64,000 bases of DNA. Origin: Elainellaceae cyanobacterium (GTDB taxonomy: Bacteria; Cyanobacteriota; Cyanobacteriia; CAZCXK01). The stretch covers positions 1 to 64,000 of the forward strand of contig JBNPEG010000026.1 of the NCBI GenBank assembly GCA_051117555.1, given 5' to 3'. This document shows, in pieces, positions 41,354 to 64,000 of the stretch; within the stretch, counting starts at the first letter, position 1, and every line of letters begins with the position of its first letter. The position numbers and the translations under genes were made by a program. Below the pieces are notes generated by a model. It did no database searches and was not told where the DNA came from. It saw nothing but the letters and a program-made list of their open reading frames with translations.

Positions 41354-41447
41354 TATAGCGGTATGCGCTTGGGTTAAGTACAGTGGGTGTGGGGGCCGCA
41401 CCCCACACCCACCGTCTCTGTACTTGACGCAATTGCACATTGCTATA
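41354..41447. mobile_element. MITE-like element with TATAGC...GCTATA ends
   Basis: Inverted ends and internal GTGGGTGTGGGG...CCCCACACCCAC hairpin. Confidence 0.6.
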
Positions 41448-41492
41448 AATCGTAGAGTATGGTCGTTAAAAACTCCTGAGAAGCAGCGTGTC

Positions 41493-45298: not shown

Positions 45299-45525
45299 AG
45301 ACCTCGAAGAATCAGACTTGCAGTCGGCATGAGCAGCCTACAGAACGGGAGTTAGCTTAAGATATTGTAATGCCTTCTTGGAAATCAAGCATGGACTCAT
45401 ACTTGAGTTGACTAATTTCATCGAACTTGGACGTAATGTTTCCCGCTGTCTTACCATAAACTCAAGCAGGTTAACGCCGTAACCTAGCATGAAACTCATC
45501 TTATTCAAGTGATTTTCTTATTCCT

Positions 45526-45756
45526 ATGGATAATCCTACTGTCAACTCGGATGTATCGTCAGACAAGATTGAAATTTCGGTACGCCTAGATGCCGAACTG
45601 CTAGATCAAATCGGTCATTTGACTCAAGATCCGAGTAAGGTGATCGAAGTTGCCGTGCGTCAATGGCTGCGGGGTGGTGTACGCCGAGATGATGATTTAA
45701 CTCGCACTCTCGACCAAAATCCTCCTGTCCCGCCTCGCGGCGAATGGAATGATTAA
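45526..45756 (+). CDS. Small conserved cyanobacterial protein, ribbon-helix-helix-like
   Basis: ISVRLDAELL..I..L...PSKVIE.AVRQWL pattern; PPRGEWND C-terminus. Confidence 0.7.
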   Translation: MDNPTVNSDVSSDKIEISVRLDAELLDQIGHLTQDPSKVIEVAVRQWLRGGVRRDDDLTRTLDQNPPVPPRGEWND

Positions 45757-45955
45757 TCAAGATTTTCGCGGTTTTGCCATTGTTGAACAGATATGGATAG
45801 GCTAAGTTAGAGCGGGAACTCTAGCCATTGACATCGGCGATATGCATCAAGCATTGTCTCGCATCTATCGGGACTGCATCTACATTGATTAGGATAAGCA
45901 TTGATTTAGGATAAGCAGATGTTAATCGCTGACCGTATTCGTTGTTTCCGGTTCA

Positions 45956-47776: not shown

Positions 47777-48644
47777 CATTACCAATTCACGTGTTTTGAG
47801 AAAAACAACATAGGCTGCTCATGGTCAGGCCCATGCTTCGATGGGATTTTGAGCAGCCATTGAATAAGTACAGAAATGGTGATGGGGGGCGCGAGTGCTC
47901 TGCACCATTATGTTATGCCGATTTTCTTACAAAAAATTGCTAATAAATTCTGACGTTAATCGTTTGTTTATAGACGTTAATCGTTTGTTTATAATAGAAA
48001 ATAGGAGGGGGATCAGCGTGGGATGACCCTTTCAACCCAATCGATCAACCCAATTAATCAAATCTGACATAAAGAATGTTTACGTTTTTCTGAATACGGC
48101 TTTGACATCAGAACTCTTGACATCAGAACTTGAGTTTTACATTTTTTTTCACACATCCATTAATAATTTCGCGAGACAGGATAATACTATGAAAATTTTA
48201 CTATTTCTCGCCTTCGATTTTTTCTTCTCGTGGATGTTCATATCATTAATTTTCCATTTCATCAATTGGATGCTGGATATGGATAAGGGAAGAGAGCCTA
48301 AATATCCAGGATTTTAATCTGAATTATTTACGGGTCAATCTATAGCAATTTTCAATTGACCTTTGTGGCTTTGCCAGATGTGGGGACTATCCGCCGAGCG
48401 AGTCAGGCGCGGATGCACAAACCGCTCTGTGAGGCGAGTGACCTGTTTCAGGTTGCGGAGAATCTGTCGCGCCAGGGTTGAAGGAAACTGGAATTGGGCG
48501 ACTCGTTGAGGTAGCCAGGGCGATCGCACTTACACGAAAATCTAAACGCTCTCTTGAAATCGGTGCGTTACGCTTCGCCAACAGCATCCGCTGCGCTAAC
48601 AGCACCCTACCTAATGCACTATTTTAGCTGTGCCACGCCCCTAC

Positions 48645-49409
48645 TCAACTAAAAAGCAGAGATACTACGTAGGCGATCGCATCAGAGATGGACGTGTTTG
48701 CCCAGTGTTCATTGAGAAAAAAGCCCGTGGCTGCACTTCCTAGCGGAACGGTGAGGTTATCAATCCCGAATTTAGAAAATGCTTCTAGCCCGGTTGAAAC
48801 TAGTGCGATCGCCACGGGAACCAGCCAGGTTTGCCAGATATTTCCTTGAATCCCCAGCAAAATCACGCTGCTAATTACATAGCTGACTCCTGCCATCGTC
48901 AGCGACCCTTCCCAGCTTTTCTGAATTCCCCACAGTTTATAGGCGTGCTTGCCCCATCGCTGCCCAATCAGAGCGGCAAAACCATCGCCCCACGTCATCA
49001 CCAAGATTCCGAGAGCGGCATAGTGATATTTCTCTAGTCTCCAAAACCATGCCACCAAGATGCCAATGCTCAGGGCATAGAAAAAAGTCCCCAAACTTTT
49101 GCGTCCTACACTGTTGATACCAGGAAGAATCGGATAGCGATAGGAGAGCAGCGCAATTCCGCTACAGATAACCGACGCAGCAATGCTAAACCAGCTTGGA
49201 ATGTGAAGAAACCAGGCGAGAAGAATGACATTGCCAACCCCGATGTGGACAACTTTACGCGTGGTTTCTGCTCCGCCGAGCTTCGTTTTATTGAGAATTT
49301 CAGCAATCAGAACGATTGCCCCTAGCCACACCACAACAGCACCGAATTGAATCCAAAATTCGGTGGATGTGAGCAGCGAATCAATAAATGACCAAACCGA
49401 GTAAACCAA
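48645..49409 (-). CDS. Phytol/polyprenol kinase family (CTP-dependent)
   Basis: RKVVHIG, GDGFAALIG, KSWEGS, DNLTVP. Confidence 0.9.
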   Translation of the reverse strand: MVYSVWSFIDSLLTSTEFWIQFGAVVVWLGAIVLIAEILNKTKLGGAETTRKVVHIGVGNVILLAWFLHIPSWFSIAASVICSGIALLSYRYPILPGINSVGRKSLGTFFYALSIGILVAWFWRLEKYHYAALGILVMTWGDGFAALIGQRWGKHAYKLWGIQKSWEGSLTMAGVSYVISSVILLGIQGNIWQTWLVPVAIALVSTGLEAFSKFGIDNLTVPLGSAATGFFLNEHWANTSISDAIAYVVSLLFS

Positions 49410-49666
49410 GATGTATGAGTAACCGTCGGCTGTTCGTTTTCACGTCACTGTAGTCAATATTAAGTCTCTATCAACCCGTTTTAGAGATTGATCTGGCTGT
49501 GTAAACTCAAAATGAAGATTTTGTAAAGCTGAGCCTATCTGATAAATTCCTTAGATTTCACATACAAGATCTCTTTGGCTCTTTCGGGAGTCAAGCTGGC
49601 ACCGTTTGGGGGGATATCTCGGTGCCGGCTTCTAGTCTTTCGGTGGGGACGAGTCCTTAACCAGCG

Positions 49667-50437
49667 TCAAACAACGAGTGGACGGCACGTAGATAACACC
49701 GCCCTCAGATTAACCACTGCACCCACCACGGCGATCGCAGGTGCTTCAAATCCAGTTTCTTCGACGAGTTTAGCGATTGTGTCAAGCGTTCCTACTAATT
49801 CGTCCTGGTCAGGGCAAGTGCCCCAGCGCACCAATGCCACCGGGGTGTCGTTCGATAAGCCCGCTGCTTGCAGTTCTGCTGTGATATAGGACAGGTTATG
49901 AATGCCCATGTAGATGACAATCGTTTCTGAACCGTGGGCGATCGCCTGCCAGTTTACCTGCGGGCGATACTTCCCAGCGGCTTCATGCCCGGTCACAAAG
50001 GTCACTGATGAGCTATGAGCTCGGTGGGTGAGGGGGATTCCTGCATAGGCAGGCGCAGCAATACCAGACGTAATGCCTGGAATCACCTCAACCGGAATTC
50101 CCGCTGCCACTAGATCCTCCATTTCTTCACCACCGCGCCCAAACACAAAGGGATCGCCCCCCTTCAGGCGAACCACGACCGCATGGTGTTTTGCCGTCTC
50201 AATCAGGAGCTGAGTTGTATCGGCTTGCAGACGCGAATGCCGTCCTCGACGCTTTCCAGCGTTAATGATCTCAGCTTGGCTACCAATCATCGCCAAAATT
50301 TGTGGGCTTACCAACGTATCATGGATGACGACATCTGCACATTCAAGCAGCGTCTTGCCTTTTAGCGTAAACAACCCTGGATCGCCAGGGCCTGCACCCA
50401 CCAGATAGACTTTGCCCCTACAGGTTTTCATACGCAA
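49667..50437 (-). CDS. cobA: Uroporphyrinogen-III C-methyltransferase
   Basis: VYLVGAGPGDP, RLKGGDPFVFGRGGEE, GIPLTHR. Confidence 0.96.
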   Translation of the reverse strand: MRMKTCRGKVYLVGAGPGDPGLFTLKGKTLLECADVVIHDTLVSPQILAMIGSQAEIINAGKRRGRHSRLQADTTQLLIETAKHHAVVVRLKGGDPFVFGRGGEEMEDLVAAGIPVEVIPGITSGIAAPAYAGIPLTHRAHSSSVTFVTGHEAAGKYRPQVNWQAIAHGSETIVIYMGIHNLSYITAELQAAGLSNDTPVALVRWGTCPDQDELVGTLDTIAKLVEETGFEAPAIAVVGAVVNLRAVLSTCRPLVV

Positions 50438-50469
50438 ATTGATGCTAAGTAACGAATGGGCTAAAACGT

Positions 50470-51336
50470 TTAATGCTCTGTCATTAAGTCGATTACGAGA
50501 TCAGCAATTTCAGGCGTTGCCCCTAATGGCTGAGCCAGTCGGAGACGCATGTCAGAATATCGAGCCGAAAGCTCATCAACTGTTTGGGCGATCGCATCAG
50601 TGATTCCTCCTGGGAATAGAAAATATGGAAAAATTGTGATGTGCCGTTGCCCAGCACCGCGAAGCTCCTGAATGCGGTCGGCTAAGCTGGGTGAGACAGA
50701 CCAATAGGCAGACGTGGCGCCAATGCGGGAGGCGATCGCCTCGATCGGTGCATTGCCTCCTTCACGACGGCTACCGTGAGCCATCAAGATCGTGGCATCA
50801 GCCCCAGACAATGCCGAGTCTTCTAGTAGCGTCTTCACATAATGGCTCAGTTGGGGATGACTGCCCAGAAAAGAGTGTAAATGAATGTCAAGCTTGTTTT
50901 CGAGTGGGGGTTGAGCTTGCTCAATTTCTGCAGGAATGTCTTCTTTGACATGAACACCCGACAGCAGGAACAACGGCAAAATGTGAAGCTGCCGACACCC
51001 AACCGTTTGGAGGCGATCGCCAAATTGCTGAATTTGCTCGTGAAGGGAACGTGGCGATAGTTCCAGAGCAGCGGTTCCCACGTGAGGTGCTGCGTTCAAT
51101 TCGTGCTGTTTTGATTTGCTGTGAGGTGTTTCGATCTGCTTGCTCATCTTGGATGCGAGAGCAAATTCACCGCTTATAACAGAGTCGCGGCTGCGTAGAG
51201 CCTGCGTCCGTTGTTGCAGACGCTTTGCAACAAGCATCGCCAAATGGTGAGCCGACGATTGCGATCGCGAATCACGACTTCCATGATAAACCAGCAGATA
51301 TGCAGAAGAGGGCGTTAATATTCCGCTCTTTGCCAT
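50470..51336 (-). CDS. Sirohydrochlorin chelatase (CbiX/SirB family)
   Basis: Two HGSR motifs, PLFLLSGVHVKEDIP, PYFLFPG; start at MAKSG. Confidence 0.9.
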   Translation of the reverse strand: MAKSGILTPSSAYLLVYHGSRDSRSQSSAHHLAMLVAKRLQQRTQALRSRDSVISGEFALASKMSKQIETPHSKSKQHELNAAPHVGTAALELSPRSLHEQIQQFGDRLQTVGCRQLHILPLFLLSGVHVKEDIPAEIEQAQPPLENKLDIHLHSFLGSHPQLSHYVKTLLEDSALSGADATILMAHGSRREGGNAPIEAIASRIGATSAYWSVSPSLADRIQELRGAGQRHITIFPYFLFPGGITDAIAQTVDELSARYSDMRLRLAQPLGATPEIADLVIDLMTEH

Positions 51337-51455
51337 CCTTGACCGCCCAGCACTATGACAACAACAATTGTTAATTATCATAAAGGCTGAAGCCAAAACA
51401 TGCGATCGCCAATTGAGCAAGTTGCATTCACAACTTGCAAAATGCGAATAATGCC

Positions 51456-52310
51456 TCAAGAAATCTGACGCTGATCGCCCATCATCCGCTCATGTTCAAC
51501 CACAAACACATTGGAATATAAATTAGCGATAATTTGCTGCCCCTGCTGAGTAAGTTCTAGATAGCGCAACCCGTCTCTGACGTAAGGGTATACTCCGTTC
51601 CAATAAAATCGAGGATAGTTATCTCTCAAATCACCCGGATGGCTATATCCCAAGGCTTTGTTGACACCCGTTTCTTCAAACTCATAAAACAGTGCCCCAA
51701 TTTTTTTCAGATACCGAGGATCGCTAAGCTGACCAATCAAATCAGACGCCCGAATTAATCCAGGGTAGTTGACTGTATCTCGATGATCCTCTGCTTTAGG
51801 AACAGGGAACCGAGTCAACTCAATATTTTGCTTGATGGCCTCAGCATTAATCAGCTTGTGGTTGCCAAATCGCTCGTCAATAAACAACTTTGCGCGATCG
51901 ACATGATAAGGAGTCAAACTCGCATCGGAGGCTCCAGGAGGCAAATGGACTCGATGCCCATTTTGCCCAGTCGCATACCATCGATTTTCGTCTTGACGAC
52001 AGACCCCTTTCACATAGCCGATGTCATGACACACTAGCGAAATAATAAAGTGAAGCCAGTCTTCGCAAGAAACCCCCCCTTCTCGGATGTGTTTGCCCCG
52101 CAAAATTTCTTGACCAACCAATGTCACTAAGATGGTGTGCTCGACATTGTGATAAAGAGCATCACTGTTGGCAATATTCTCCAACGCCATTGACCCAACC
52201 CAACCTATGATGTCTTCATAGTCGGTTTTCCAGCCACCATAGGTCCGGTGATATCCATTTTTAAGCTTTTGAACAAAGTCGTCTATTAACAGCTCAGTTG
52301 CGTTAAACAT
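51456..52310 (-). CDS. HD-domain metalloprotein (Npun_R2479-like)
   Basis: YHNVEHT, CHDIGY, YHVDR, DLIGQL. Confidence 0.85.
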   Translation of the reverse strand: MFNATELLIDDFVQKLKNGYHRTYGGWKTDYEDIIGWVGSMALENIANSDALYHNVEHTILVTLVGQEILRGKHIREGGVSCEDWLHFIISLVCHDIGYVKGVCRQDENRWYATGQNGHRVHLPPGASDASLTPYHVDRAKLFIDERFGNHKLINAEAIKQNIELTRFPVPKAEDHRDTVNYPGLIRASDLIGQLSDPRYLKKIGALFYEFEETGVNKALGYSHPGDLRDNYPRFYWNGVYPYVRDGLRYLELTQQGQQIIANLYSNVFVVEHERMMGDQRQIS

Positions 52311-52722
52311 CCTGAATTCTCGCCTAGATTTTAGAAGGGCTCGGGCACGAACTCCAAATTAGTGGCTCACGTGGGATAGTCAGAATATCTAAAGCGGAAT
52401 CGTCAACCGATTGAAAACTGTCAGCAAGAGGAAAAAACAACTTGTTAGGAAAGAGAGCCTGATTGGAGTGCACTTGACATCAATGATAACTAAATCCTGT
52501 CTAAATAAAATCCTAGAGCTTTTCTTAATGAAAACGACAGGATTCGATTGAGATATGATTTTAGATTGCTCAAACTCTATCAGATCAACTCCTTGAAAGG
52601 AGCGTATGTTGCTAAATACAACGTAAATGAACGTAAACGGTTTTTCTAATAATTCACACCCTCAGTTGGGCTATGGCGGTGTGCGCTTGAGTTAAGCAAT
52701 GGTATTCTTAAGGAACCGCGAT

Positions 52723-52794
52723 GCGGGTGTAGTTCAGTGGTAGAACGTCAGCTTCCCAAGCTGAATGTCGTCGGTTCGAGTCCGATCACCCGCT
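52723..52794 (+). tRNA. tRNA-Gly (CCC)
   Basis: Acceptor GCGGGTG/CACCCGC, anticodon arm TCAGC-TTCCCAA-GCTGA, T-loop GGTTCGA; CCA not encoded. Confidence 0.97.
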
Positions 52795-52800
52795 TTTTTC

Positions 52801-52838
52801 TGAAGAGCCCTGAAATCAGCTGATTTCAGGGCTCTTCA
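52801..52838. terminator. Perfect 38-bp palindrome downstream of tRNA
   Basis: TGAAGAGCCCTGAAATCAG|CTGATTTCAGGGCTCTTCA; terminator role is inferred from position. Confidence 0.55.
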
Positions 52839-52988
52839 AGATCTTGATGTCACTGGTAGAAAAGCTAATTTCCTGCAAATTGGGGTAAACGTTTGGCCAC
52901 TTTGTACCAGTTTGCACTAATTATTGGGGTAAGTTTGGGGTAGGATTTCAACAGATTGGGCTGGTATCTACGTATTGTTTCTAAGGTG

Positions 52989-54176
52989 ATGCCGATGACC
53001 AGTACCCCCAAAAAGCGAAAAGCCTCGAAAGGAACCGTTCAAGTTAAGTCTTCTAACGATCGCTTACAGCTAGTTTTTTCCTATAGCGGGAAGCGTCATT
53101 ACTTGAGTCTTGGATTGCCTGACACGCGCACGAATCGAAAAGTAGCCGAAGCTAAGGCCAAACTGATTGAAGCCGACATTGCGTTTGACCGATTTGATCA
53201 GACCTTAGACAAATACAGGCCGCAATCTCAACAAAGAGGCGGGTCTTCAAGCGATGGCAATCTTACATTAGAGCCGTTGTGGGAACAATTTGTGGAATTT
53301 AAGCGCCCACAATGTTCACCGAACACCATGATCTCGACCTACGGGACCTTTTCAAGGTATGTCAATCGGCTCCCAACCCATGACCTAGGCCGGGCTATGG
53401 AAATTAGGGAATATGTTCTAGCTAATATTCCCCTTGATGCCGCTAAGCGCTTTATTACTCGTTTGTCTGCCTGTTGTGATTGGGCTATCGAAGCTGACCT
53501 AATTGCTGATAATCCCTTTCAGGGTATGGCTGCCAAGATCAAGAAGCCAAAATCGGTAGCGGCAGACGGCCTTAACGACATCAATCCATTTTCGCTTCAG
53601 GAGCGGGATGCCATTATTCAAGCGATCGAAACTGATCGCTTCTGCTCTCCTCATTCAGCGTACAAGCATAGTCGCTATGCTTCCTTGGTTAAATTTCTAT
53701 TTGCCACAGGATGCCGACCCTCAGAAGCCGCAGCGCTGCAGTGGGATAACATTTCCCGAGACTGTCAACAAATCAACTTTTCTCAAGCAGTGGTCTTAAC
53801 AGAAACCGGTAAACGGATTCGCCAGGGCTTAAAAACCCAGGAGCAGCGAAAATTTCCTTGTAATGGCTCCTTAAGCGCCTTATTAAAATCGATCAAGCCT
53901 GAGGACATTGATGCAACGACCTTGGTGTTTCCGTCTCCTAAGAACAAACCGATCGACCTGAATAATTTTCGAAATCGTACTTGGGAATTGGTCCTTAAAG
54001 GACTTGGCATCGAGTACCGGAAGCTTTACCAGACTCGCCATACCTTCATTACACACGCATTAGAAACCGGCAAATTAGATGCCAAAGATGTGGCTCGATT
54101 GGTGGGGAACTCCCCTGAGGTCATCTATAAGTACTACGCCGGGAAGAAACGTGAGCTAGAAGTTCCGGAGTTTTAA
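52989..54176 (+). CDS. Tyrosine recombinase/integrase with N-terminal arm-binding domain
   Basis: RLQLVFSY.GKRHYLSLGL arm domain; TGCRPSEA (R), LKT (K), YQTRHTF, GNS...IYKYY (Y). Confidence 0.95.
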   Translation: MPMTSTPKKRKASKGTVQVKSSNDRLQLVFSYSGKRHYLSLGLPDTRTNRKVAEAKAKLIEADIAFDRFDQTLDKYRPQSQQRGGSSSDGNLTLEPLWEQFVEFKRPQCSPNTMISTYGTFSRYVNRLPTHDLGRAMEIREYVLANIPLDAAKRFITRLSACCDWAIEADLIADNPFQGMAAKIKKPKSVAADGLNDINPFSLQERDAIIQAIETDRFCSPHSAYKHSRYASLVKFLFATGCRPSEAAALQWDNISRDCQQINFSQAVVLTETGKRIRQGLKTQEQRKFPCNGSLSALLKSIKPEDIDATTLVFPSPKNKPIDLNNFRNRTWELVLKGLGIEYRKLYQTRHTFITHALETGKLDAKDVARLVGNSPEVIYKYYAGKKRELEVPEF

Positions 54177-54215
54177 ACTTGCACAGTGGGGGGGCTAAGT
54201 TGTCTCTCGTGGGTT

Positions 54216-54851
54216 CTACAGTTTGCGGCCAAACCAGACAACTCTGCCCATGATGCTTAGACCAGCTGGCTTGCTGGATAACTGAATTGCAAAAGTTTCA
54301 TACGCAGGATTTTCGCTAAGCACCTTTAACGTGTTGTCAGCAACATACTGTAAGCGTTTGACGAGGACCCGACTATCCAGCTTGAGTAAATAAATGCCGT
54401 GACTAATCGTCTCCAAATCTCGGTCATAAGTGTCTACCAGTACAAAGTCTCCAAGATGAAGTGTCGGTTCCATACTTTCATCACTGACCTGAGTCAGCAG
54501 TAGGTTTTCGAACGTGTGAGGGAACTCCGTTTGTAACCACTCCGTCTTAAAGGCAAATGGATCCTGGCAGATATACTTTTCCTGCAAGGTGGCAGCTGTC
54601 TCTTGAGACGTAACTTTTCCAGTGGCCAACCATTCCAGATTAACACCAGCCGTGCGAGCTATTGCAAGCAAAGCAGGACGAGTCGGTTCACTTTGCCCAT
54701 TCAGGTATTGGCGAAGGACAGTATCAGAGAAACCGCATTCTCTGGCAAAACCGCGAATACTTTTCTCGCCCAGCGCCTCTTTCAGACGGCCTGGGAAGTC
54801 ATCGGATTCAGCTAAATGGGTCTGTTGGTCTGTAGAGGATGGATGAGTCAT
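54216..54851 (-). CDS. CI-like repressor (XRE HTH plus S24 autopeptidase)
   Basis: N-terminal HTH; ESMEPTL (Ser), LVKRL (Lys), GRVVWF. Confidence 0.93.
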   Translation of the reverse strand: MTHPSSTDQQTHLAESDDFPGRLKEALGEKSIRGFARECGFSDTVLRQYLNGQSEPTRPALLAIARTAGVNLEWLATGKVTSQETAATLQEKYICQDPFAFKTEWLQTEFPHTFENLLLTQVSDESMEPTLHLGDFVLVDTYDRDLETISHGIYLLKLDSRVLVKRLQYVADNTLKVLSENPAYETFAIQLSSKPAGLSIMGRVVWFGRKL

Positions 54852-54947
54852 AGACTTTCAAACTCGCGTTTTGCAAATTATAACTCTTGACGTGCGCGTT
54901 AATAATTGCTAGCTTCATCATTATATCGATGGAGCTAGGACGATTCT
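54852..54947. promoter_or_regulatory. Divergent overlapping promoters (genetic switch)
   Basis: + strand TTGACG(54887)-N17-TAGCTT(54910); - strand TATAAT at 54877-54882. Confidence 0.6.
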
Positions 54948-55277
54948 ATGCATGTAGAGGACATTAAAGCAGCTCTGCGGAAGCAGGGATGGACCTTGGC
55001 CAGCATCGCTAAAGAACTCGATATTGGTCCTTCGGCAGTATCCCACGCCTTAACCCGCCAGCGATCGCGCCGGATTGAGCAGGTCATTGCCAGCAAACTT
55101 GGCCTGTCTCCCCATGAGATTTGGCCCCAGCGGTACAAACGAGGAAAGGTCAGCCATGCCCCAATTTGTCAGCAAACAGGAAGCCATCCAATATCTCAAG
55201 CTCAGCGACTCGACTCTAAAACGTTATCGCTTGCAGGGCCTGCTGGTCGAGGGCATTCACTGGGTTCGAGTCAATAG
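54948..55277 (+). CDS. Ner/Nlp-family DNA-binding protein (Cro-like role)
   Basis: MH.EDIKAALRK.G.TLA...E.VIA..LG.SP.EIWP.RY. Confidence 0.88.
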   Translation: MHVEDIKAALRKQGWTLASIAKELDIGPSAVSHALTRQRSRRIEQVIASKLGLSPHEIWPQRYKRGKVSHAPICQQTGSHPISQAQRLDSKTLSLAGPAGRGHSLGSSQ

Positions 55278-55431
55278 CCGCTGTATCCGCTACAACCTAG
55301 AGCTGATTCAAGATTGGCTACATAATCGCCATGACCCCATTGCTCACCAAAGGGCTATTCACATCTACCAGTCCAGTTTGTTAAGCAACCAAAAGAAATC
55401 ATCTCAGCGAGTCTCTTCAAAGCGAACTTAA
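55156..55431 (+). CDS. Excisionase-like HTH protein
   Basis: EA..YL.LS.STLKRYR..G....GIHW......IRYN pattern; start at MPQF. Confidence 0.75.
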   Translation: MPQFVSKQEAIQYLKLSDSTLKRYRLQGLLVEGIHWVRVNSRCIRYNLELIQDWLHNRHDPIAHQRAIHIYQSSLLSNQKKSSQRVSSKRT

Positions 55432-55770
55432 GGTTGTAAAACGGACAGAAATCTTCTTGAGAATTTATCAATAAGTTGAACCCTTTTCTGAAGAAGATAG
55501 CTGAATCAGAAGAGTCAAAAAAATACACCCTAAACATTGAGTTGTAAGGGTGCATCGCTTTTGCTTTTTGTCTTTTGAGCTGGGTCAATCAACAATTTGA
55601 AGAGGTTTGTCAGAACCGCTTCAGAGACCGACCTGCTAGCAAAACTGGTGTTTTAAACTATAGCAAAGTTGCTGAAAATGTCTATGGCAAAAAGGCAGCT
55701 TTGGTCATTGCTTGACCAAGAATTAGCAGTTTGAGATTGATGACCCAGCTTCTGGAATCAGGAGCTGATA

Positions 55771-58172
55771 ATGACACAGTACGTTTACTCGGGGCGATCT
55801 CGCCCCTGCCCAATTTGCGATCGCACTAAAGATCCAGACTGCCGCTGGAATGAGGAGGTGGTCTTCTGTCACACTTACATCGACCAGGATGCCAGTATTG
55901 AGGGCTACGTCTATCGCGGGGCCACCGCTGACGGTTTATGGGGACAGTATTTCAAATTGACCCAGTCAGAAAAGTCCGCTCGTCCCCAGCAGCGGCAGGA
56001 CTTCTTTTATCCGACTCGGCAGGGACAGCCCCTGGTGAAGGTGACGCGGGTGGATCGCGGGAGTGGTACCAAGTTCTTTGTTCAGTACCACTGGGATGGG
56101 CAACGGTGGGTGAAGGGGCTGACGCCAGCGGTAAGAAAGCAGGTGCCAATTTATCGCTATGCGGAAGTGAGACGGGCGATGGCGGCAGGCCAATCCATTT
56201 GGATGGTGGAGGGGGAAGGCTGTGCGGATGTGCTGTGGAATGTTGGCATTCCGGCAACGACAACGCTGGGTGGCTCTAAGAAATATCACAGTTATGGCGA
56301 CTATCCCAAGACTTGGAAGGGGCTCGCCTGGTGTTGTGCCCCGATCGCGACCAGGTCGGCATGGCTCACATGGAAGAGATTGCCCAGGATTTTCCGGACG
56401 CTCAGTGGTGCTATCCCTATCCGGAGAGTCTGCGCTGGCAAAACCTGCCTAAGCATGGCGGCCTTGATGTTGCGGACTGGATTGCCGAGGGCGCAACAGC
56501 TGAGCAGATTCGAGCAGCCGTGGGAGAACGGCGACAGCTGGGATCGTCTTCCCCAGTCGTGGCTAAATCATTGGACTTGCCCACCCTGAAGGAGCAGTTG
56601 CGCAGCTATCTGGCGGCGGAGCATTCGGAGTTGGAATTGGCGGCACAGGTTTTGCAATGGCATCGGGAATCGGGGCTAGCCGCTAAGGATATCTGGAGTT
56701 TGGTGAAGCTGATTCAAGCGGAGTTGGAGCAGGATGAGGAACGGGGCGATCGCACTGTTCAAATCCGGCAACTCCTGAAGATTGGTGATTACCAGCTGCA
56801 GTTAGGAGAGTATCTGCATCCTGATTTGGCGGCACCGTTGGAGCATATAGCGGCATGGATCGGGGCGACGCCTGCAGCCATGTTAGTAACGCTGTTGCCA
56901 GTGGCCGCTTCTCTGCTGCGGGTCGGGACGGAGTTGGAAATTGACGCGAGGATGGGCTTCTATGTACCCCCGATTCTGTTTACCGGGTTGGTGGCCCCCT
57001 CCGGCAGTAAGAAGAGCCCCCTTCAGCGGCAGATTTTGGGACCGCTTTCTCAATTGCAGACAGAAGCGGATCAGGACTATGAGTATGCGGCTGCGGAGTA
57101 TGAGGTGAACCTGCGGGACTGGGAGCAGGCCAAGGCAGATGACAGGGGAATGCGGCCTCGGAAACCGATGCCCAGGGAATATCACACCTCAGATGCCACA
57201 CGGGAAGCGATCGCCCGCATTCAGTCCCAACAGCCGGAGCGGGGCATTTTGGTGACGCCGGATGAGTTGGCGGGCATGTTCAAGGGGCAGAATCAGTACC
57301 GCAACGGTCGGGGCAACGATAAGGAGTCGCTGCTAACAGCCTTTGATGGCTCAGGGCTGAAGGTAGATCGGGCCAGTGGCATGCGCATCAGCATTCCTCG
57401 CACCAGTCTCAGCATTACCGGCACGATTCAGCCGGACATCTTGCGGGAGATGATGGGCGATTTCTCTGACGCCAATGGGCAGTGGGCACGGTTTCTGTGG
57501 TGTTTGCTGCCGCTGCAGCCTGCCCCGTTTCCCCAACAGACGGTGCGGTATGACCTTTCAGAACGGCTCTATGGTCTGTACCGGCAATTAGAGGACTCTC
57601 CTCCCAAGCGCTATCGGTTGACGGCGGAGGCGAAGGCGCTGTTTGCGGAGTGGTATGACCAGTTGGATCATCTGCGGGTGACAGAAACGCACCAAGGTTT
57701 GCAAGCAGTTTACTCGAAGATGCAGGGCTATACGGGGCGGCTAGCGTTGATTTTGCACTGTTTGCAGGGGGCGGTAGACGGGGGTTTACCCGCAGAGAGG
57801 ATATCGGTTCAGACGATGGGGGCAGCCATCAAGCTGGCGCGATGGTTTATGGGGCAGGTGAAGCTGCTGTATGCGGAGGGCGACTCGGTAGATGGGGCGC
57901 TGGAGGCGGTTTACACGAAGCTGATTCAGTTGTCGCGGGTGCGGGGTTGGCTAAGGGCGAAGGATGTGCGCAATTATGAGCGCAGCTTGCGGAAAGCGAG
58001 TGCGGAGGTGATTCGATCTCACTTTCGAGAGCTGGAGGCGATGGGGTATGGGGAGACGTGTGGGGTGGGGAATCGGTTGCAGTGGCGAGCAACGGTAGAC
58101 GCGGTAGACAGATCTGAGGCGACGGTAGACAGGGTGTCTACCGCTGAAAGCGTTGATGGTCATGGATCATAG
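55771..58172 (+). pseudogene. Primase (Zn finger + Toprim) fused to DUF3987 helicase-like domain, split by a frameshift near 56305
   Basis: ORF 55771 has CPIC and VEGE; ORF 56313 (-1 frame) has PDRD, APSGSKKS and PDELAG; one extra C in CCC 56305-56307 would join them into about 800 aa. Confidence 0.8.
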
Positions 58173-58324
58173 GAAAACGGTAGACAAGTAGACAAGTTTT
58201 GTCTGTAGGAAGTCTCTGGAAAGTGTCTACTGTCTACCGAAATGCTTGAAAGGCTCTTGAATAGAGAGTTTCGAGTGGTAGACCGCGTGTCTACCGAACG
58301 TCTACCGCTGTCTACTGTGTCTAC
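58095..58324. repeat. Cluster of 13 GTAGAC/GTCTAC direct and inverted repeats (putative origin iterons)
   Basis: 6 GTAGAC plus 7 GTCTAC in 230 bp at the 3' end of the replicase gene. Confidence 0.8.
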
Positions 58325-58339
58325 CAACGACAAATCAGA

Positions 58340-58645
58340 TCAATCGTCGTCTGTGAACAAACCAGTCAGGTCACGATATCCACTGACGACTCGTAGGATA
58401 TCTACGCGAGATTGCGTCACTGTATAGAGAATGAGATAGCTATCCATGGCAAGGCTTCGCAGACCCGGAAGGATTTCGTCACGAGGTCGCCCAAGGCTAG
58501 GAAATTGTGTGATTCGGGCGAATTTGGCATCAAGCTTCAATAGGAAACGCTCTGCCTGTTCAAGTTCGGTCTGGCTGGCGATGTAGTCCGCAATATCCTC
58601 AATGTCTTGAATGGCAGGCTGAGAAAGGTAAAACTGAGGCGTCAT
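58340..58645 (-). CDS. ParE/RelE-family toxin
   Basis: A..DIEDI.DYIA...FP.LGRPRDE..PGLRS....YLILY...V.ILRVV.G.RDL. Confidence 0.92.
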   Translation of the reverse strand: MTPQFYLSQPAIQDIEDIADYIASQTELEQAERFLLKLDAKFARITQFPSLGRPRDEILPGLRSLAMDSYLILYTVTQSRVDILRVVSGYRDLTGLFTDDD

Positions 58646-58911
58646 GATTCGGGGCTGGCGTGGCGATTTCTCAACTTCTCCCGAATTTGGGCCATAGCAG
58701 TGGGTCCTTCGACCACTTCCCCTCGTCGGACAGCTTCCAAGCCGATTTGAACGTCCTGCTGAAGTTCAGGCAGTCGTCCTTGATAGATATCTTCTTGCTG
58801 TTCGAGTAGGTATACACCAGCTGCAATAACATCCAGAGCAGACTGGTATTTACCAGCGGCGAGCTGACGTTGAATGAACTGCTCCAGTTCAGGAGGGATG
58901 GTAATTTGCAT
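58642..58911 (-). CDS. ParD-family antitoxin
   Basis: I.IPPELEQFI..QL..GKY.SA.DVI; 4-nt overlap with toxin; start at MQITI. Confidence 0.9.
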   Translation of the reverse strand: MQITIPPELEQFIQRQLAAGKYQSALDVIAAGVYLLEQQEDIYQGRLPELQQDVQIGLEAVRRGEVVEGPTAMAQIREKLRNRHASPES

Positions 58912-59072
58912 GAAGGACTCAAGAAAGCAACCACACTGTAAGTTCAATTCTAGCGCTCAAACGTATTGATTTTGTTTCAGTCAAGTGAGTAGCCAGCCAG
59001 AAAGCAGAATGTTGTTGAGAGGAAGTGGTGTTGAAATTGAAACATAAAATTCAAAAACCGACTTATCTTCAA

Positions 59073-61028
59073 CTAATCATTTATAAAATCTTCAGGTATT
59101 AAAGCTTTTCCATGTGTCCATGGTTCTTCAACAAGTGCTTCTTGAAATTTTCTGTTGCTCAAATTTGCATGTTCCAAAACAATGATCTGAAATCTTGGAA
59201 AAAGTTCCTCACAAAATCCATGTAGAAGTTCGAACATTCTTTCGACAGCAACTATATCTGCATTTGAACTGAGGGTTTCTTCAACTGTGATATCTTCCAG
59301 AGAGAGATAAGTTTCTCTGGAAGGGAAATATACTTGTGACGGCTGATCTAATATTAGAAAGCGGGGAACTGGGCGTTGTTTTTCCACAAAGTGTTTATGC
59401 AAGCCTAGGTGAGCGATCAAATGGCAGCCGAGCCAATTTTCGCCACTTCCCATGCGATCCATGGGGATTGGTCTTTCAGTTCTATCTGCTATTACAGTTA
59501 GTTTCTTTAAATCAAGACGATATGGTGATCCACAATGCTCAAGTTCAAGAAAGTTTGCCCACTCAGTCATTTGCTGACCAATCCTATTTAGAACTGATGT
59601 AATAATCTCATCTATCTCAATTGGATCATGTTGGGATTCTAAATCTTCGACTCTTCGCTGAGCAGAATTAACACTGATTCTTAGTTCAGAAGACTCATCA
59701 GTGAAATCAACGTCTTCCAAGTAAAGACTAATTCGACCAATCACTCTGGCAACCCTAGAATTGAAATCACGCATTCTTCGAGCTGCTTCCTCTTCTTCTA
59801 AAATCCCTTGAATGGCGAGCTCTACTTCAGACATCTGATGTTGTATTTCTAACCGTTGCTCCTTTAATTGTTGTATATATTCTCGCAATCTGGGTTGCTT
59901 TCCTTCCACAATATGAACACTATTGCTTAAATCTTCGAGTGAACTTTGTATCGCCATTGTGGAAGGAACAGGTTCTGAAAGCTCAGAACTACACAAAGGA
60001 CAAAGATGACTAGAGTTATCGTTTTCATGACGAAATAGATTTACCGTTTCTAATCTAACTAATTGTTGGTTAGCTTCATTTGAGTAACCCTCAGCTTCTC
60101 TCACAAAAGATTCGGCGGCCTCAACCTGTTCCTGTTTTCGCTTTAATTCTGTATATAATCTCTCTCTCTCCTGTTGAAGCACTGGGAAGCGGTCATCGAC
60201 TATTCCTGCTTGCAAATCAGTAGGTACCCATGTAAGGGTTTGTCTCAATGCCGACAAAATTTCTTCTGGACTTTCAGCTATAAGCTCTGACTCGACTAAA
60301 CCAACTTGTCTGGCTTCTGATAGAAGTCTTTGACCAATATCAGTTTGATTGCTAGCGATAGATAGAGCTTCATATAATCTTCGCTGAGCAAGTCTGAGTT
60401 CTCGGCGTGCAACTCGTAATTCTTGTTCTAGAATAAGCTGATCTTCCTGGGTAACGCCTAGAAAATACGGCAGAGAGTCTTTGATAGCTTGTGGAATAAA
60501 TTGTTCTTGCTGTCTGTGAAATAGTAAACGTCTATTAGCAATTTGATTTTGGTCCTGAAAAAGATAGAAACTAGCATGCCTAATATCAGCTCTTAAAGGC
60601 TCCCTAGATTGCCCTAAATCTGGAGTATTTTGATTTGCGGAAATCCCTATCAGACCTGAGAGAAAAGTCTTAAGAGCACTGTCATTCGTGTTAGGTTCTA
60701 AATCAGCTATTTCAGGTATTTCAATATTTTCGCTAATCTCATAATAGGCTTGACTTTGGGTTATACTATATCCAGATGGACTAGGTTTTCCGATAAAAAG
60801 TTGACTGCCCGGCAGCTGAAAGAGAACGGCATACCAAGACACTGTATCTCTAATAATTCCTTCTGGAATTTGGAAATTTGAGCTTCCAAGGCAATAGTCT
60901 ACAATATCGATAATCGCAGACTTTCCAGTCCTTGACTTTCCAGTAATTATATTAACTTTGCCTAATTCGAAATCGAGAATTCGCTTTCCACCCAATGAAT
61001 TATAAAGAATAATTGACCTTATTTGCAT
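59073..61028 (-). CDS. lmuB: Lamassu/ABC-3C SMC-like ATPase (DUF3732)
   Basis: Walker A GKSRTGKS, coiled coils with CPLC zinc hook, GSGENW signature, LILDQPSQVYF, terminal LEHA. Confidence 0.88.
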   Translation of the reverse strand: MQIRSIILYNSLGGKRILDFELGKVNIITGKSRTGKSAIIDIVDYCLGSSNFQIPEGIIRDTVSWYAVLFQLPGSQLFIGKPSPSGYSITQSQAYYEISENIEIPEIADLEPNTNDSALKTFLSGLIGISANQNTPDLGQSREPLRADIRHASFYLFQDQNQIANRRLLFHRQQEQFIPQAIKDSLPYFLGVTQEDQLILEQELRVARRELRLAQRRLYEALSIASNQTDIGQRLLSEARQVGLVESELIAESPEEILSALRQTLTWVPTDLQAGIVDDRFPVLQQERERLYTELKRKQEQVEAAESFVREAEGYSNEANQQLVRLETVNLFRHENDNSSHLCPLCSSELSEPVPSTMAIQSSLEDLSNSVHIVEGKQPRLREYIQQLKEQRLEIQHQMSEVELAIQGILEEEEAARRMRDFNSRVARVIGRISLYLEDVDFTDESSELRISVNSAQRRVEDLESQHDPIEIDEIITSVLNRIGQQMTEWANFLELEHCGSPYRLDLKKLTVIADRTERPIPMDRMGSGENWLGCHLIAHLGLHKHFVEKQRPVPRFLILDQPSQVYFPSRETYLSLEDITVEETLSSNADIVAVERMFELLHGFCEELFPRFQIIVLEHANLSNRKFQEALVEEPWTHGKALIPEDFIND

Positions 61029-61029
61029 A

Positions 61030-61515
61030 TTATGGACGAACTCCCCACATAGTGAAAAAAGATGTTGGCTCTTGGATTTTAGCCATCCATTGGCCTAGAA
61101 ATTCGGCTCTCCTTATCAAAGAATCTAGCGCTGGATTTTCTGTATTACTATTCAGAGAACGACGAACCCAAGTCACTGTTCCATCTTCCTGGAACGTAAT
61201 TATTCCCGTTTGACAGCCGAATACTATTGCTTCTTTTGTGTGGGGAACTAAATTCCTCATGCGATTGACAAAATCAATTCGAACTTCAGGATTTTCCTGT
61301 AACCAAACATGTAATTTGGTACGAGTAGTAGTGGGTAATACGCTTCGTGTATATGGATGTAAAGTAATTGGCAGAATAAAAAATAGTAAGGCATATGGCA
61401 TGCCAGATCTGCTTTCTCTTTCATATCCTCTAATGCCATATTGGAGCAACACAGCACAAAAAGCAGGATTAAACAGGTTTGCTATTTCAATAGGGCGTCT
61501 TTCCCAAGGCAGCAC
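61030..61515 (-). CDS. lmuC: Lamassu/ABC-3C middle component
   Basis: ANLFNPAFC...LPITLH..TR..LP motif; AGGAG SD before GTG 61515; lies between effector and ATPase. Confidence 0.82.
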   Translation of the reverse strand: MLPWERRPIEIANLFNPAFCAVLLQYGIRGYERESRSGMPYALLFFILPITLHPYTRSVLPTTTRTKLHVWLQENPEVRIDFVNRMRNLVPHTKEAIVFGCQTGIITFQEDGTVTWVRRSLNSNTENPALDSLIRRAEFLGQWMAKIQEPTSFFTMWGVRP

Positions 61516-61525
61516 GGAATAGCTC

Positions 61526-62710
61526 CTATGAAGTTGGTAATAATTGAGCGAGTCTTTCAACGAATTTTGGATGCCAACATATAATAGGTGAAATTTTGTC
61601 AGCTAATATGTGGTAACTTCCACGCATTACATATTCTTCAGCAACCTGTGGCCGTATTCTAATATCTGCAATTTGATCCACCCAGTTATATAATTTTCGC
61701 CCAAATTGTTGATGCGCTGTTTCATCTTCATCTTCAAGAATTAACTCATCCTGAAGCATCAATCGATAGCGATCCCACTCATCAATTAGCTTCTTTTCAT
61801 ATTGCTCTGTTTCATCACTGAACAATAAATCTTCGCGAGCCCATCTAGATCTTTGTTCAAACGCCCTATAGTAATCCAAAATAGCCTTTTCAATGCGCTT
61901 ATTATTAATCGCAATGGCTTTAAGTTGCATCACAAATCGACGATTATCTGCTTCAATATCAGGTGGTTCAGATGGTTGCAGATCAAAATAATCTATGGGT
62001 AAAGCATCAGGTTTAAACTGCTCTGCTATATCCAAGATTTTATCATGTACCTCAAATCCTGAAATTGGCACAGTAGATTCCTCAGTTAGGTGGTTGACCA
62101 CCTTTGAGAACCACCATCCCTCCAACCTCTCATAGAGGCTATTTAAGTGTTCTCGCCTTACAGAAAACTTGATTCTTTGCCTGATTCTTGGGACAACATC
62201 ATTGATTCGGGGTGAAGCGTCAATAATTTGTATAGAGTTAACTAGTTGTTCTTGCTCGGAATCTGTCAACGCATTAAAAGCCTCAAATTCTTTGACTAAA
62301 CTCTGAGTATCTGTAATTTGAGCGATGCTACGTAGCTGCTGTGTCGCTAGTTGTGGGTTCCTATCAGTTCCATGTCTTAGAAGGGATGAGACTGAATTTT
62401 CAGGAGCTATTCCCGTAGTAACTAAGGTAAGCAACGTGTTAGATGATACTAGGCCATCTTTGGTGAGGCTACTCCATACACGAAGCGTCTTCCAGAGATC
62501 TCTACTTCTATCCGTGAGAGACGCTTGGCTTACATGATGTTTCAGTTGCAGAAGTTCCGTAGGTGTACCTTGATCATGAAAGGTGACATCATCGAGGCTT
62601 TCAATTGATAGTTGGAGTTCTTCGCGATTTTCCAAAACAAGGTATAGCGCATAGCGAATTTGGTAAAGATAACCGAGTGCTTGAGGCCCTGCTGAAAAAC
62701 CTGAACTCAC
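61526..62710 (-). CDS. lmuA: Lamassu/ABC-3C effector: Cap4-like PD-(D/E)xK nuclease plus C-terminal domain
   Basis: GYLYQ, E..DDV, QLKHH, DLWKTLRVW; C-terminal RGSYHILAD....WHP; GGAG SD before GTG 62710. Confidence 0.82.
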   Translation of the reverse strand: MSSGFSAGPQALGYLYQIRYALYLVLENREELQLSIESLDDVTFHDQGTPTELLQLKHHVSQASLTDRSRDLWKTLRVWSSLTKDGLVSSNTLLTLVTTGIAPENSVSSLLRHGTDRNPQLATQQLRSIAQITDTQSLVKEFEAFNALTDSEQEQLVNSIQIIDASPRINDVVPRIRQRIKFSVRREHLNSLYERLEGWWFSKVVNHLTEESTVPISGFEVHDKILDIAEQFKPDALPIDYFDLQPSEPPDIEADNRRFVMQLKAIAINNKRIEKAILDYYRAFEQRSRWAREDLLFSDETEQYEKKLIDEWDRYRLMLQDELILEDEDETAHQQFGRKLYNWVDQIADIRIRPQVAEEYVMRGSYHILADKISPIICWHPKFVERLAQLLPTS

Positions 62711-62881
62711 GTCGCTGCTCCACAAGTCAGTTCACGAATCTTATAGAAGCCAAACCGAGGTTTGTACGCCTTTGGAAAGTGTGATTCACACCAAGTGAAA
62801 GTACATCCTAGTTAAATATCATCTCGCTCGATATTGGCATATCAAGTTACTGATACTGACCAAATTTTGAAAAAAGTTGCA

Positions 62882-63328
62882 TTACGACCCTTGTAACCGC
62901 TTCTGCATCGTCTCCAACTTCCGCAAATCCGCTGCCCGCTTCCGCCGTTGATACCGCTCCTTCGCCATCCCATTCACCACCTTCATCGCCTTGGGATGCT
63001 CCGACAGATACTGGTATGCCGCCTCAAACCACACCTCCTTGGTGATCTTCTCATCCATGCAGAGATGCCGCAGCGCCTTATCAATCTCCTCCTCCAACCG
63101 CGTGGTCGTACGCACCAACTGGGGCAGATCAGCCCCTTCCCCCTGACTCATAGACATGCTGACGTCAACACCCGCAGACTCATCAGAGTCACTGTATCTT
63201 GATGTCACGGCTGCTTCTGCATCCGGTTGACGAGACTTCACACGGGACGTTTCCTCCAGCCCGTCATAGCGTGGCGGCACGGTCGGGCGCTGCCGCTGCA
63301 TTAATCTTTCCAGGGCATCTTCATTCAT
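62882..63328 (-). CDS. Putative ParA partner (RHH-type centromere-binding protein)
   Basis: Starts 3 nt after the parA stop; flexible N-terminus then RTTTRLEEEID..L..LC....IT.E strand-helix-helix pattern. Confidence 0.65.
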   Translation of the reverse strand: MNEDALERLMQRQRPTVPPRYDGLEETSRVKSRQPDAEAAVTSRYSDSDESAGVDVSMSMSQGEGADLPQLVRTTTRLEEEIDKALRHLCMDEKITKEVWFEAAYQYLSEHPKAMKVVNGMAKERYQRRKRAADLRKLETMQKRLQGS

Positions 63329-63331
63329 GGC

Positions 63332-64000
63332 CTACACCTGCTCCAAGATCTCAATCACCTGCCGCAGCGGAAATTCCAACTCCCCATACCCCAGCTCTGC
63401 CAATAACCGTCCCTGCCGAATCGCTTGTTTGTAGCGCTCACTCTCCAAAATTGACGGCAGCACTGGAATCTCTCCTGCCACCTGTCGCATCGCCGCGATC
63501 GCTTCCCGACTATCCGTCGCCTGCGATCGCCCGAACCACTTATCGCGAAACGGCAGCACTCCCAGCACCTGCCCCGTAAACGCCCGAATGCGCCGCATCT
63601 CCTCCAACAGCTCCAGGCTGCGCAGTAGCGAGTTCACGCCCTTCATCGAAGCCTCCGCTGGAATTAATACCCAGTCCGACGCCCCCACCACCGATAGACA
63701 AATCTGAGTGCGCTGGGGCGGGGAATCAATCAGGCAAACGTCAAACAACTCACCCACTGCTTCCAAGCTGTAGCGCAGCGCCAACGCTCCCATACCACTG
63801 GTGGCTAAATACTCTTGGGCCTGATGCAATCCCTCATCGGCAGGCAACAGATACAGGTTCTCGTATGCCAGGGGATAAATGCCCGCTGCCGTCTCCACCT
63901 GACGCCTCAGCACTTCTAGGAGCGTCGGGGCATCCGGCTGCACGTCATGGCCTAAATAAAACGTCAGATTTGCCTGGGGGTCCGCATCCACCATCAATAC
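63332..64000 (-). CDS. parA: ParA/Soj-family ATPase (5' end outside window)
   Basis: VDADPQANLT, IDSPP, VLIPAE. Confidence 0.92.
   Translation of the reverse strand, partial: VLMVDADPQANLTFYLGHDVQPDAPTLLEVLRRQVETAAGIYPLAYENLYLLPADEGLHQAQEYLATSGMGALALRYSLEAVGELFDVCLIDSPPQRTQICLSVVGASDWVLIPAEASMKGVNSLLRSLELLEEMRRIRAFTGQVLGVLPFRDKWFGRSQATDSREAIAAMRQVAGEIPVLPSILESERYKQAIRQGRLLAELGYGELEFPLRQVIEILEQV

Follow-up and report, generated by a model that had tools for sequence, protein, structure and literature searches.

What kind of mobile element borders the tRNA-Gly(CCC) gene near the end of contig JBNPEG010000026.1 of an Elainellaceae cyanobacterium, and is it likely to move still? The stretch analysed here, called the window, comprises 64,000 nucleotides, positions 1-64000 of a contig (C71) of length 64634 in the assembly G000; other G and L numbers are codes of the other genomes and loci compared. 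An earlier note on the DNA from position 52723 onward had seen in it either a satellite of the P4 or phage-inducible chromosomal island (PICI) type or an excisable replicon. We consider the region to be, quite probably, the left arm, with the integration, regulation and maintenance genes, of a family of cyanobacterial integrative and conjugative elements (ICEs), interrupted by an insertion sequence (IS)-like repeat and probably defective. The genes named in that note (tRNA, integrase, repressor, Ner, xis-like gene, DUF3987 gene, iterons, ParDE, Lamassu and ParA) were all located where it had placed them, and are arranged as follows.

52723..52794, plus strand: tRNA-Gly(CCC) (ARAGORN), the left border and integration landmark
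52801..52838, no strand: perfect 19+19 nt palindrome after the tRNA gene, terminator-like
52956..54176, plus strand: tyrosine integrase with arm-binding domain, 'type A' (Arm-DNA-bind_2, E 3.5e-16; Phage_integrase, E 8.7e-12)
54216..54851, minus strand: CI/LexA-like repressor, HTH_3 plus Peptidase_S24 (Pfam, PHROG)
54852..54947, no strand: control region separating the repressor gene from the divergent ner-xis-rep operon, with promoters and operators presumed from the sequence
54948..55277, plus strand: Ner/SfsB-type HTH_35 regulator (E 9.3e-22), a Cro analogue divergent from the repressor
55156..55431, plus strand: AlpA/Xis-like HTH_17 protein, a putative excisionase, its gene overlapping the 3' end of ner in another frame
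55771..58172, plus strand: Rep, with zinc finger, DnaG-type primase and DUF3987 helicase-like parts, split by a 1-base deletion near 56304
58094..58325, no strand: iteron cluster and putative replication origin, with 10 GGTAGAC heptamers and some variants of them set in two arrays that face each other
58340..58645, minus strand: ParE toxin (Pfam, E 9.8e-19)
58642..58947, minus strand: ParD antitoxin (Pfam, E 3e-6)
59073..61028, minus strand: Lamassu LmuB, an SMC-like ATPase with DUF3732 (PADLOC, 1.2e-143)
61030..61560, minus strand: Lamassu LmuC, ABC-3C middle component MC3 (PADLOC, 5.5e-17)
61526..62725, minus strand: Lamassu LmuA, Cap4-nuclease-like N-terminus plus CTD7 (PADLOC, 2.5e-69)
62882..63328, minus strand: McdB-like adaptor of 148 aa, partner of the ParA-type ATPase (profile match to solved 6NOY)
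63332..64000, minus strand: McdA-like ParA ATPase, its gene running on to contig position 64096, past the window

The assignment to an ICE family comes from the relatives. Among 401 genomes sampled across the class, 17, G000 included, had a Rep match at E <= 1e-100, and close homologs (76-91% identity) were found in G199 (a closed genome), G169, G092, G005, G381, G076, G011 and G383. The same tRNA-Gly(CCC) adjoins the related elements in G005, G011 and G199, in which both the cI-to-iteron backbone and the mcdB/mcdA genes share 74-92% DNA identity with the window, while the stretch between the iterons and the par pair is non-homologous. Past the ParA gene, these three elements are colinear with each other for about 20 kb. 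The arm so defined encodes a 937-aa ATPase of the VirB4/TraC class (TIGR02746, 2.4e-11; TIGR00929, 1.2e-8), a coupling protein (TrwB_AAD_bind, 1.3e-28; TraG-D_C; T4SS-DNA_transf), a TrbI/VirB10-like protein (1.3e-10), an M23 peptidase, a methylase and a giant Sno-type helicase. Type IV secretion system (T4SS) genes were found in G005, G011, G199, G381, G169, G092 and L050, among others. Locus L050, located at tRNA-Pro(CGG), is colinear with positions 54217-64221 over one 10,050-nt block of 86.5% identity that includes ParDE and Lamassu, and it reaches VirB4 about 1.4 kb past mcdA. VirB4 homologs of at least 80% identity were present in all 12 other genomes with a close Rep, counted as distinct genomes (G404 and G383, being one genome, entered the count once). 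As VirB4, the coupling protein and the rest of the arm are absent from the G000 assembly, the ICE status of the element rests on these relatives, and the window is filed as a truncated member of the family: the secretion genes lie in the relatives and not in G000.

These relatives also bear on the proposal of a P4- or PICI-like phage satellite, induced and packaged by a helper cyanophage. The combination of an integrase, an AlpA-like protein and a primase-helicase would count as the 'Type C PICI' set for SatelliteFinder, according to sections of PMC10085698, the integrase, repressor, ner, xis and Rep products all match PHROG families, and a defence hotspot is present; the same sections caution that a three-gene set of this sort may belong to another kind of mobile element (PMC10085698). 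The absence of capsid and terminase genes claimed in the earlier note held for the 15 open reading frames (ORFs) scanned with Pfam, and also by PHROGs, and neither a packaging gene nor Psu, Delta or Sid was detected among these ORFs. The synteny check that the note had suggested in cyanobacterial genomes did recover the same backbone, but with T4SS genes following it (G199, G011, G005, G381, L050 and others). Rep homologs (30-41% identity) were found on 31 cyanobacterial plasmids, including two of 7.0 and 7.6 kb, and homologs of the McdA-like protein on 44, whereas phage records gave only four matches to Rep, weak and partial. Since the backbone in the relatives runs into a type IV secretion gene set, an outcome that the note had listed as refuting its proposal, the satellite option fails, and we regard it as highly improbable.

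A family scan restricted to one genome per species gave 39 loci, hosted by Leptolyngbya, Nodosilinea, Phormidium tenue, Leptothoe, Halomicronema, Kovacikia, Thainema, Tildeniella, Kaiparowitsia and metagenome-assembled genomes. The tRNA and integrase tally was made on the 31 loci in which the N-terminal part of rep is present; a tRNA gene lies beside the integrase in 24 of them, namely Gly(CCC) in 9, Pro(CGG/GGG) in 9, Ala(CGC) in 5 and Tyr/Thr in 1. The integrase type follows the tRNA, and repressors (60-69%) and Rep (75-94%) remain similar across loci. Loci L049-L080 share one conserved backbone with at least four integrase types, two of which are 37% identical and both use tRNA-Gly(CCC). 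The par pair was visible in 12 loci, and VirB4 in 10 within the 10-kb flank. Five loci with a full flank had no VirB4 within 10 kb; all five genomes carry a VirB4 of at least 95% identity, and in at least two it apparently lies about 21 kb downstream on the same contig, which implies a large cargo in those loci.

The element in G000 is broken immediately beyond the window. The match to G199 breaks off exactly at contig position 64511, which is 511 bases outside the window, and there G199 runs on with AATCACGCATCG... and C71 enters a repeat starting at 64509-64511. This multi-copy repeat (C71:64509-64634), inserted after a TA and also found in G002, a genome of the same genus, has its first 120-126 nt at the ends of six other contigs (seven ends in all) and once inside contig C49. 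Contigs of related elements from two metagenome runs read past 64511 with letters nearly those of G199, so the repeat is an insertion specific to this genome. Its TA-type target and the N-terminal peptide of its first frame, which resembles the beginning of an IS630-type transposase, may point to that family. An inverted terminal repeat was not found at the other contig ends, and the G002 copy also ends a contig; no contig of the G000 assembly overlaps the last 12-127 nt of C71. The repeat interior is absent from the assembly, so the sequence beyond it is not traceable. For the attachment site attR and for structural or relaxase genes the earlier note had looked to a next window, which does not exist; because C71 ends at 64634, the right end was sought in other contigs and in relatives.

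Such an ending could also be expected of a complete, functional ICE whose conjugation arm continues beyond the IS-like repeat, unassembled or unbinned. The contig does end inside a repeat shared by seven contig ends, the assembly consists of 256 contigs, none below 2 kb, related elements in the metagenome runs continue beyond 64511, and the arm is present in all of the other genomes with a close Rep. This alternative would require, however, that an assembly scored as 100% complete lack some 20 kb of unique sequence. When 28 kb of G199 (17001-45000), beginning a little upstream of the break, was compared with G000 by blastn, only 324 nt upstream of the repeat were recovered; with 15 G011 proteins, tblastn returned nothing but the par pair and M23 domains of unrelated proteins, and searches of G000 with the VirB4-like protein and PF10412 gave nothing above threshold. 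The gene block that follows this tRNA in G002 sits inside G000 contig C204, where it is preceded by unrelated host DNA rather than element DNA, and the rep frame is broken. We therefore consider a complete ICE unlikely. The absence of the arm from G000 is as judged from a draft assembly.

Rep is read in two frames, 55771-56589 and 56313-58172, where the intact genes of relatives encode 783-819 aa and a frame of at least 750 aa runs without a break in 28 of 31 relatives. The earlier note had described one primase-DUF3987 gene; it is present, only not as a single gene. Three relatives (L068, L071, L074) have the frame broken after 339-370 codons with a match about 51 nt longer than elsewhere, which could be an insertion or an intervening sequence inside rep. 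The same frameshift bears on another explanation, a mobilisable derivative that dispenses with its own secretion system and is moved in trans by intact family members. The retained integrase, xis-like gene, switch, origin-like iterons and par genes would suit it, as would the co-occurrence in metagenome runs of intact relatives with near-identical Lamassu pieces. Yet no oriT or relaxase was identified, the truncation is an IS-like insertion and not a conserved deletion, and no other copy without a T4SS was seen, the five loci without a nearby VirB4 having one in the genome. This makes a mobilisable derivative very unlikely. The truncated left arm of an ICE is thus the reading we prefer. With the arm not in the assembly, rep frameshifted and attR not found, present-day mobility is doubtful; the copy in G000 is most likely an immobile remnant kept as a ParDE-stabilised Lamassu island, and to be a Lamassu/ParDE island may now be its main role. 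Of the excisable replicon once proposed, with its CI/S24 switch and ParA pair, the maintenance arm of an ICE family stands, and the mobility in this genome is in doubt.

Several observations weigh against the preferred interpretation. The rep frameshift is known from the assembly alone, and none of the four metagenome contigs covering the site (three runs) carries the deletion; most of these contigs are from other strains, which leaves the deletion unconfirmed for this one. No metagenome run holds the whole stretch, the best shares being 0.52, 0.51 and 0.33, and the contigs come mostly from relatives. VirB4, the coupling protein and every other part of the G199/G011 arm are missing from the G000 assembly. 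The VirB4 matches in the relatives are far below the NCBIfam curated cut-offs, no relaxase was detected by Pfam or NCBIfam among the arm proteins of G005 and G199, and several arm proteins match no family. No attR was found in G000, as a repeat of at least 16 nt of the tRNA 3' part or downstream flank in the whole assembly, nor in the 50-70 kb downstream in G005, G011 and G199, by exact and near repeats. The repressor of G000 has Thr-Gly in place of the usual Ala-Gly cleavage site, and a crystallised homolog of the McdB-like protein is reported, in parts of PMC6582323, without DNA binding.

From the gene identities, the synteny, the iterons and the break, all read from the DNA itself, we infer the following course of induction, excision, replication, partition and transfer for an intact element. 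An arm-binding tyrosine integrase would place it beside a tRNA gene, where the CI/LexA-like HTH-S24 repressor would silence the divergent ner-xis-rep operon. Loss of the repressor, supposedly by RecA-stimulated self-cleavage, would turn on the Xis-like factor and Rep, and the excised circle would replicate from the GGTAGAC iteron origin just 3' of rep. ParDE and the McdA-like/McdB-like ParA pair would keep the circle in the cell, and transfer would be carried out by the type IV secretion arm that starts just past the par genes. The slot between the origin or ParD and the par genes would hold exchangeable anti-phage cargo, in this case Lamassu.

At the integration end, the integrase begins 162 bp past tRNA-Gly(CCC), the sole tRNA found by ARAGORN in 45000-64000, so that a recombinase stands at the border beside the integration site, as is expected of an ICE. 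It is only 37% identical to the integrases of G199, G011 and G005, and 69-83% identical to those of L053, L056, L063, L065, L066 and L067, which are at tRNA-Gly(CCC) as well. Similarity between the window and the empty site in G002 extends to about 52825. The search for attachment sites used the tRNA 3' part plus the next 160 nt as the query; it yielded only 10-14-mers at chance level, and the best repeats in relatives, of 11-14 nt, were unconvincing. A 14-mer 48 kb downstream in G005 (E 0.03) was rejected as attR, having no counterpart in G011 or G199, and what had looked like an inverted piece of a tRNA in G005 turned out to match by chance. In G002, the host genes to the left of this tRNA (52625-52722) are not on the same contig as the tRNA, and the neighbours are different ones. 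Judged from these sequences, the chromosome is rearranged around tRNA-Gly between G000 and G002, and for that reason G002 gave no means of setting the right flank beside the island. Copies of a miniature inverted-repeat transposable element (MITE)-like repeat of about 95 nt, represented in the window at 41354-41448, flank the tRNA-Gly gene in G002; many copies occur across dozens of contigs of G000 and G002.

Ser126 and Lys165 of the repressor, which we take to be the catalytic Ser-Lys dyad, are invariant in four of four aligned homologs. At the candidate site of cleavage, two relatives have AAG, and G000 and G005 have ATG. The product of the xis-like gene, whose likely start is the ATG at 55156, matches HTH_17 at E 2e-4, below the Pfam cut-off, and the PHROG family 'excisionase and transcriptional regulator' at 1.6e-6. 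The ner-like ORF extends 122 nt into the xis-like gene in another frame, and the Ner domain ends near residue 66; the last 40 or so codons look like read-through of the neighbouring gene, outside the Ner domain.

The DUF3987 protein of 56313-58172 matches Pfam at E 6.7e-56, and the Rep N-terminus carries a CPxC...C..H motif. Matches of Rep to PHROG primase (2.4e-15) and helicase (8.2e-26) families were obtained, with Pfam Toprim_2 at E 0.039 only. The fold of residues 1-360 of the G199 Rep was predicted from a seven-sequence alignment (mean pLDDT 76.6), and Foldseek related the model, at E values as low as 1.5e-6 and a probability of 1.00, to DnaG catalytic cores, Aquifex primase, T7 gp4 and Twinkle; template modelling scores for the multi-domain model were low, 0.3-0.39. 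Rep is thus, on the predicted fold, a DnaG-type primase-helicase fusion of the T7 gp4/Twinkle/P4 alpha architecture, encoded by a frameshifted gene in G000. The window has 17 copies of the heptamer GGTAGAC where 3.19 would be expected; none of 100 shuffles reached 17, and 10 of the copies lie within 58094-58325. The facing arrays begin inside the 3' end of the DUF3987 gene, and arrays are at the same place in G199, G005 and G011. G000 contains two more DUF3987 homologs, at C220:12-836 and C155:35565-36395, 36-38% identical to the Rep of the window, which suggests, as far as the sequences go, other plasmid-like or integrated elements.

Defence cargo was found in the slot between the origin or ParD and the par pair in all four elements examined, each with a different content, as follows.

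G000: ParDE plus Lamassu with Cap4-nuclease-type LmuA
G011: Uma2/PDC-S03 nuclease plus another Lamassu subtype
G199: Uma2/PDC-S03 plus STAND-TPR ATPase
G005: candidate system PDC-M28

LmuA, LmuB and LmuC are adjacent and co-oriented in the window, which identifies the operon as a Lamassu system (PADLOC; Pfam DUF3732, MC3, CTD7), and the ParD and ParE genes overlap by 4 nt, as in ParDE type II toxin-antitoxin pairs. At the right end of the G199 element (L044), two NACHT/EAD10 NTPases and a caspase/CHAT-like protease lie past the giant helicase, in the element or its flank, and may represent a second defence-type cargo region.

The composition of the island is mosaic, with a GC fraction of 0.55-0.585 for rep, 0.38-0.40 for Lamassu and 0.51-0.58 for the par genes. 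The HIP1 sequence (GCGATCGC) has 85 sites in the window, 79 upstream of the island (52.7 kb; before 51410) and 6 in it, of which one is in ner, three are in rep and two in the ParA gene. The earlier note had ascribed HIP1 sites to the core genes, which applies to the backbone (ner, rep, ParA) and not to the integrase, repressor, ParDE or Lamassu genes, all with 0 sites.

Beyond the slot lies the McdB-like/McdA-like pair, whose first gene the earlier note had taken for a ribbon-helix-helix-like one. The family profile of the 148-aa product, which has no match in Pfam, NCBIfam or PHROG, matches the solved 'McdB' 6NOY at E 7.8e-30, and a ribbon-helix-helix identity was not supported. The ParA-type product matches the solved 'McdA' of Cyanothece/Gloeothece PCC 7424 (6NON, 6NOO, 6NOP) at E 4e-96. 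Its Walker A motif is SGGQGKT, in which a serine replaces the signature lysine (lslsGGQGKTs in the 6NOO alignment), and the distal lysine ('Lys151') is conserved ('EAS.KGVNS'), which identifies it as an McdA-like ParA lacking the signature lysine, a type described in parts of PMC6582323 and PMC7182216. The solved pair is located on plasmid pP742402. Plasmid pairs of this kind have been argued to be partition systems rather than carboxysome positioners, the crystallised pair being 'not true McdAB', and the Type 1 carboxysome system of Synechococcus elongatus may descend from them, according to passages of PMC7182216; the McdB-like partner's N-terminal region binds the ATPase, according to passages of PMC6582323. 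Carboxysome positioning was rejected for the pair in the window by context, as it lies in the backbone of a mobile element between defence cargo and T4SS genes. In this family the pair always stands between the cargo slot and the secretion operon. As the solved McdB-like homolog reportedly does not bind DNA, the pair might serve something other than classical centromere partition, such as the positioning of an element protein assembly (a relaxosome or secretion machine) on the nucleoid, and elements of this kind could also have been the natural vehicle that brought a plasmid-type McdAB-like system to a cyanobacterial chromosome, where it could have been recruited for carboxysomes; we offer this as a speculation that is rather improbable at present.

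The copy in G000 is a broken, damaged family member and of modest interest itself. From the window one arrives, though, at an ICE family of Leptolyngbya/Nodosilinea-type cyanobacteria that is both coherent and widespread, in which swappable integrases for four tRNA sites are combined with a CI/Ner switch, Rep and iterons, and an McdAB-like pair with solved structures, and in which the slot trades anti-phage systems (two Lamassu types, Uma2 nuclease, STAND ATPase and PDC-M28). Cyanobacterial conjugation is known almost only from gene profiles. Sections of PMC4027160 report that no experimental or computational study of cyanobacterial conjugative systems was found, and sections of PMC5587801 that no ICE of the cyanobacterial class could be delimited. 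No description of this ICE family was found in the literature, supplementary files being outside the search. Several of the carriers are in culture, among them Nodosilinea nodulosa PCC 7104 (L070), Phormidium tenue FACHB-1052 (L072) and Leptolyngbya sp. Heron Island J (L060), so that excision, transfer and the exchange of cargo can be tested, as can the question of what the McdAB-like pair really has as its cargo.

Among known systems, P4-like satellites and PICIs share with the window the order of integrase, regulator, AlpA-like gene, primase-helicase and defence hotspot. The definition of P4-like satellites, as given in sections of PMC10085698, has seven components (Psu, Delta, Sid and Ash in addition to Int, AlpA and alpha), and of these components the window has only the integrase, the AlpA-like HTH_17 protein and a primase-helicase analogue, among the 15 ORFs scanned with Pfam, a scan made with no P4-specific profiles. 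Psu, Delta, Sid, Ash, terS and capsid genes, components named in the same sections (PMC10085698), were not found by Pfam or PHROG, and the PICI/cfPICI components terS, ppi, capsid and connector genes were likewise absent from the Pfam and PHROG scans.

Plasmid pP742402 of Gloeothece citriformis PCC 7424 is comparable at the partition pair: its McdA-like protein is 58% identical, with the same SGGQGKT and distal lysine, and the McdB-like partner is common to both. The element of the window differs in being integrated at a tRNA gene with an integrase, an Xis-like protein and CI/Ner, whereas the plasmid pair is beside CRISPR-Cas and further genes and not the same Rep.

ICEclc and PAPI-1, proteobacterial elements of the MPF_G class, reside at tRNA-Gly or other tRNA genes and have a ParA/Soj-type gene near one end. 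The tRNA site and the ParA-type gene near an end are features in common with the element described here, and regulation differs.

In SXT/R391 ICEs, a CI-like S24 repressor acts as the switch, the excised circle has plasmid-like replication and active partition, and a toxin-antitoxin pair is carried along with variable hotspots for anti-phage systems. With each of these seen or proposed in the element here, they are the nearest functional model, with a different host phylum and integration site and no membership at the sequence level. The element here would be replicated from a primase-helicase Rep and iterons rather than by a relaxase-driven route, its partition pair is McdA/McdB-like, and its secretion genes are highly divergent, presumably of the cyanobacterial MPF_C class.

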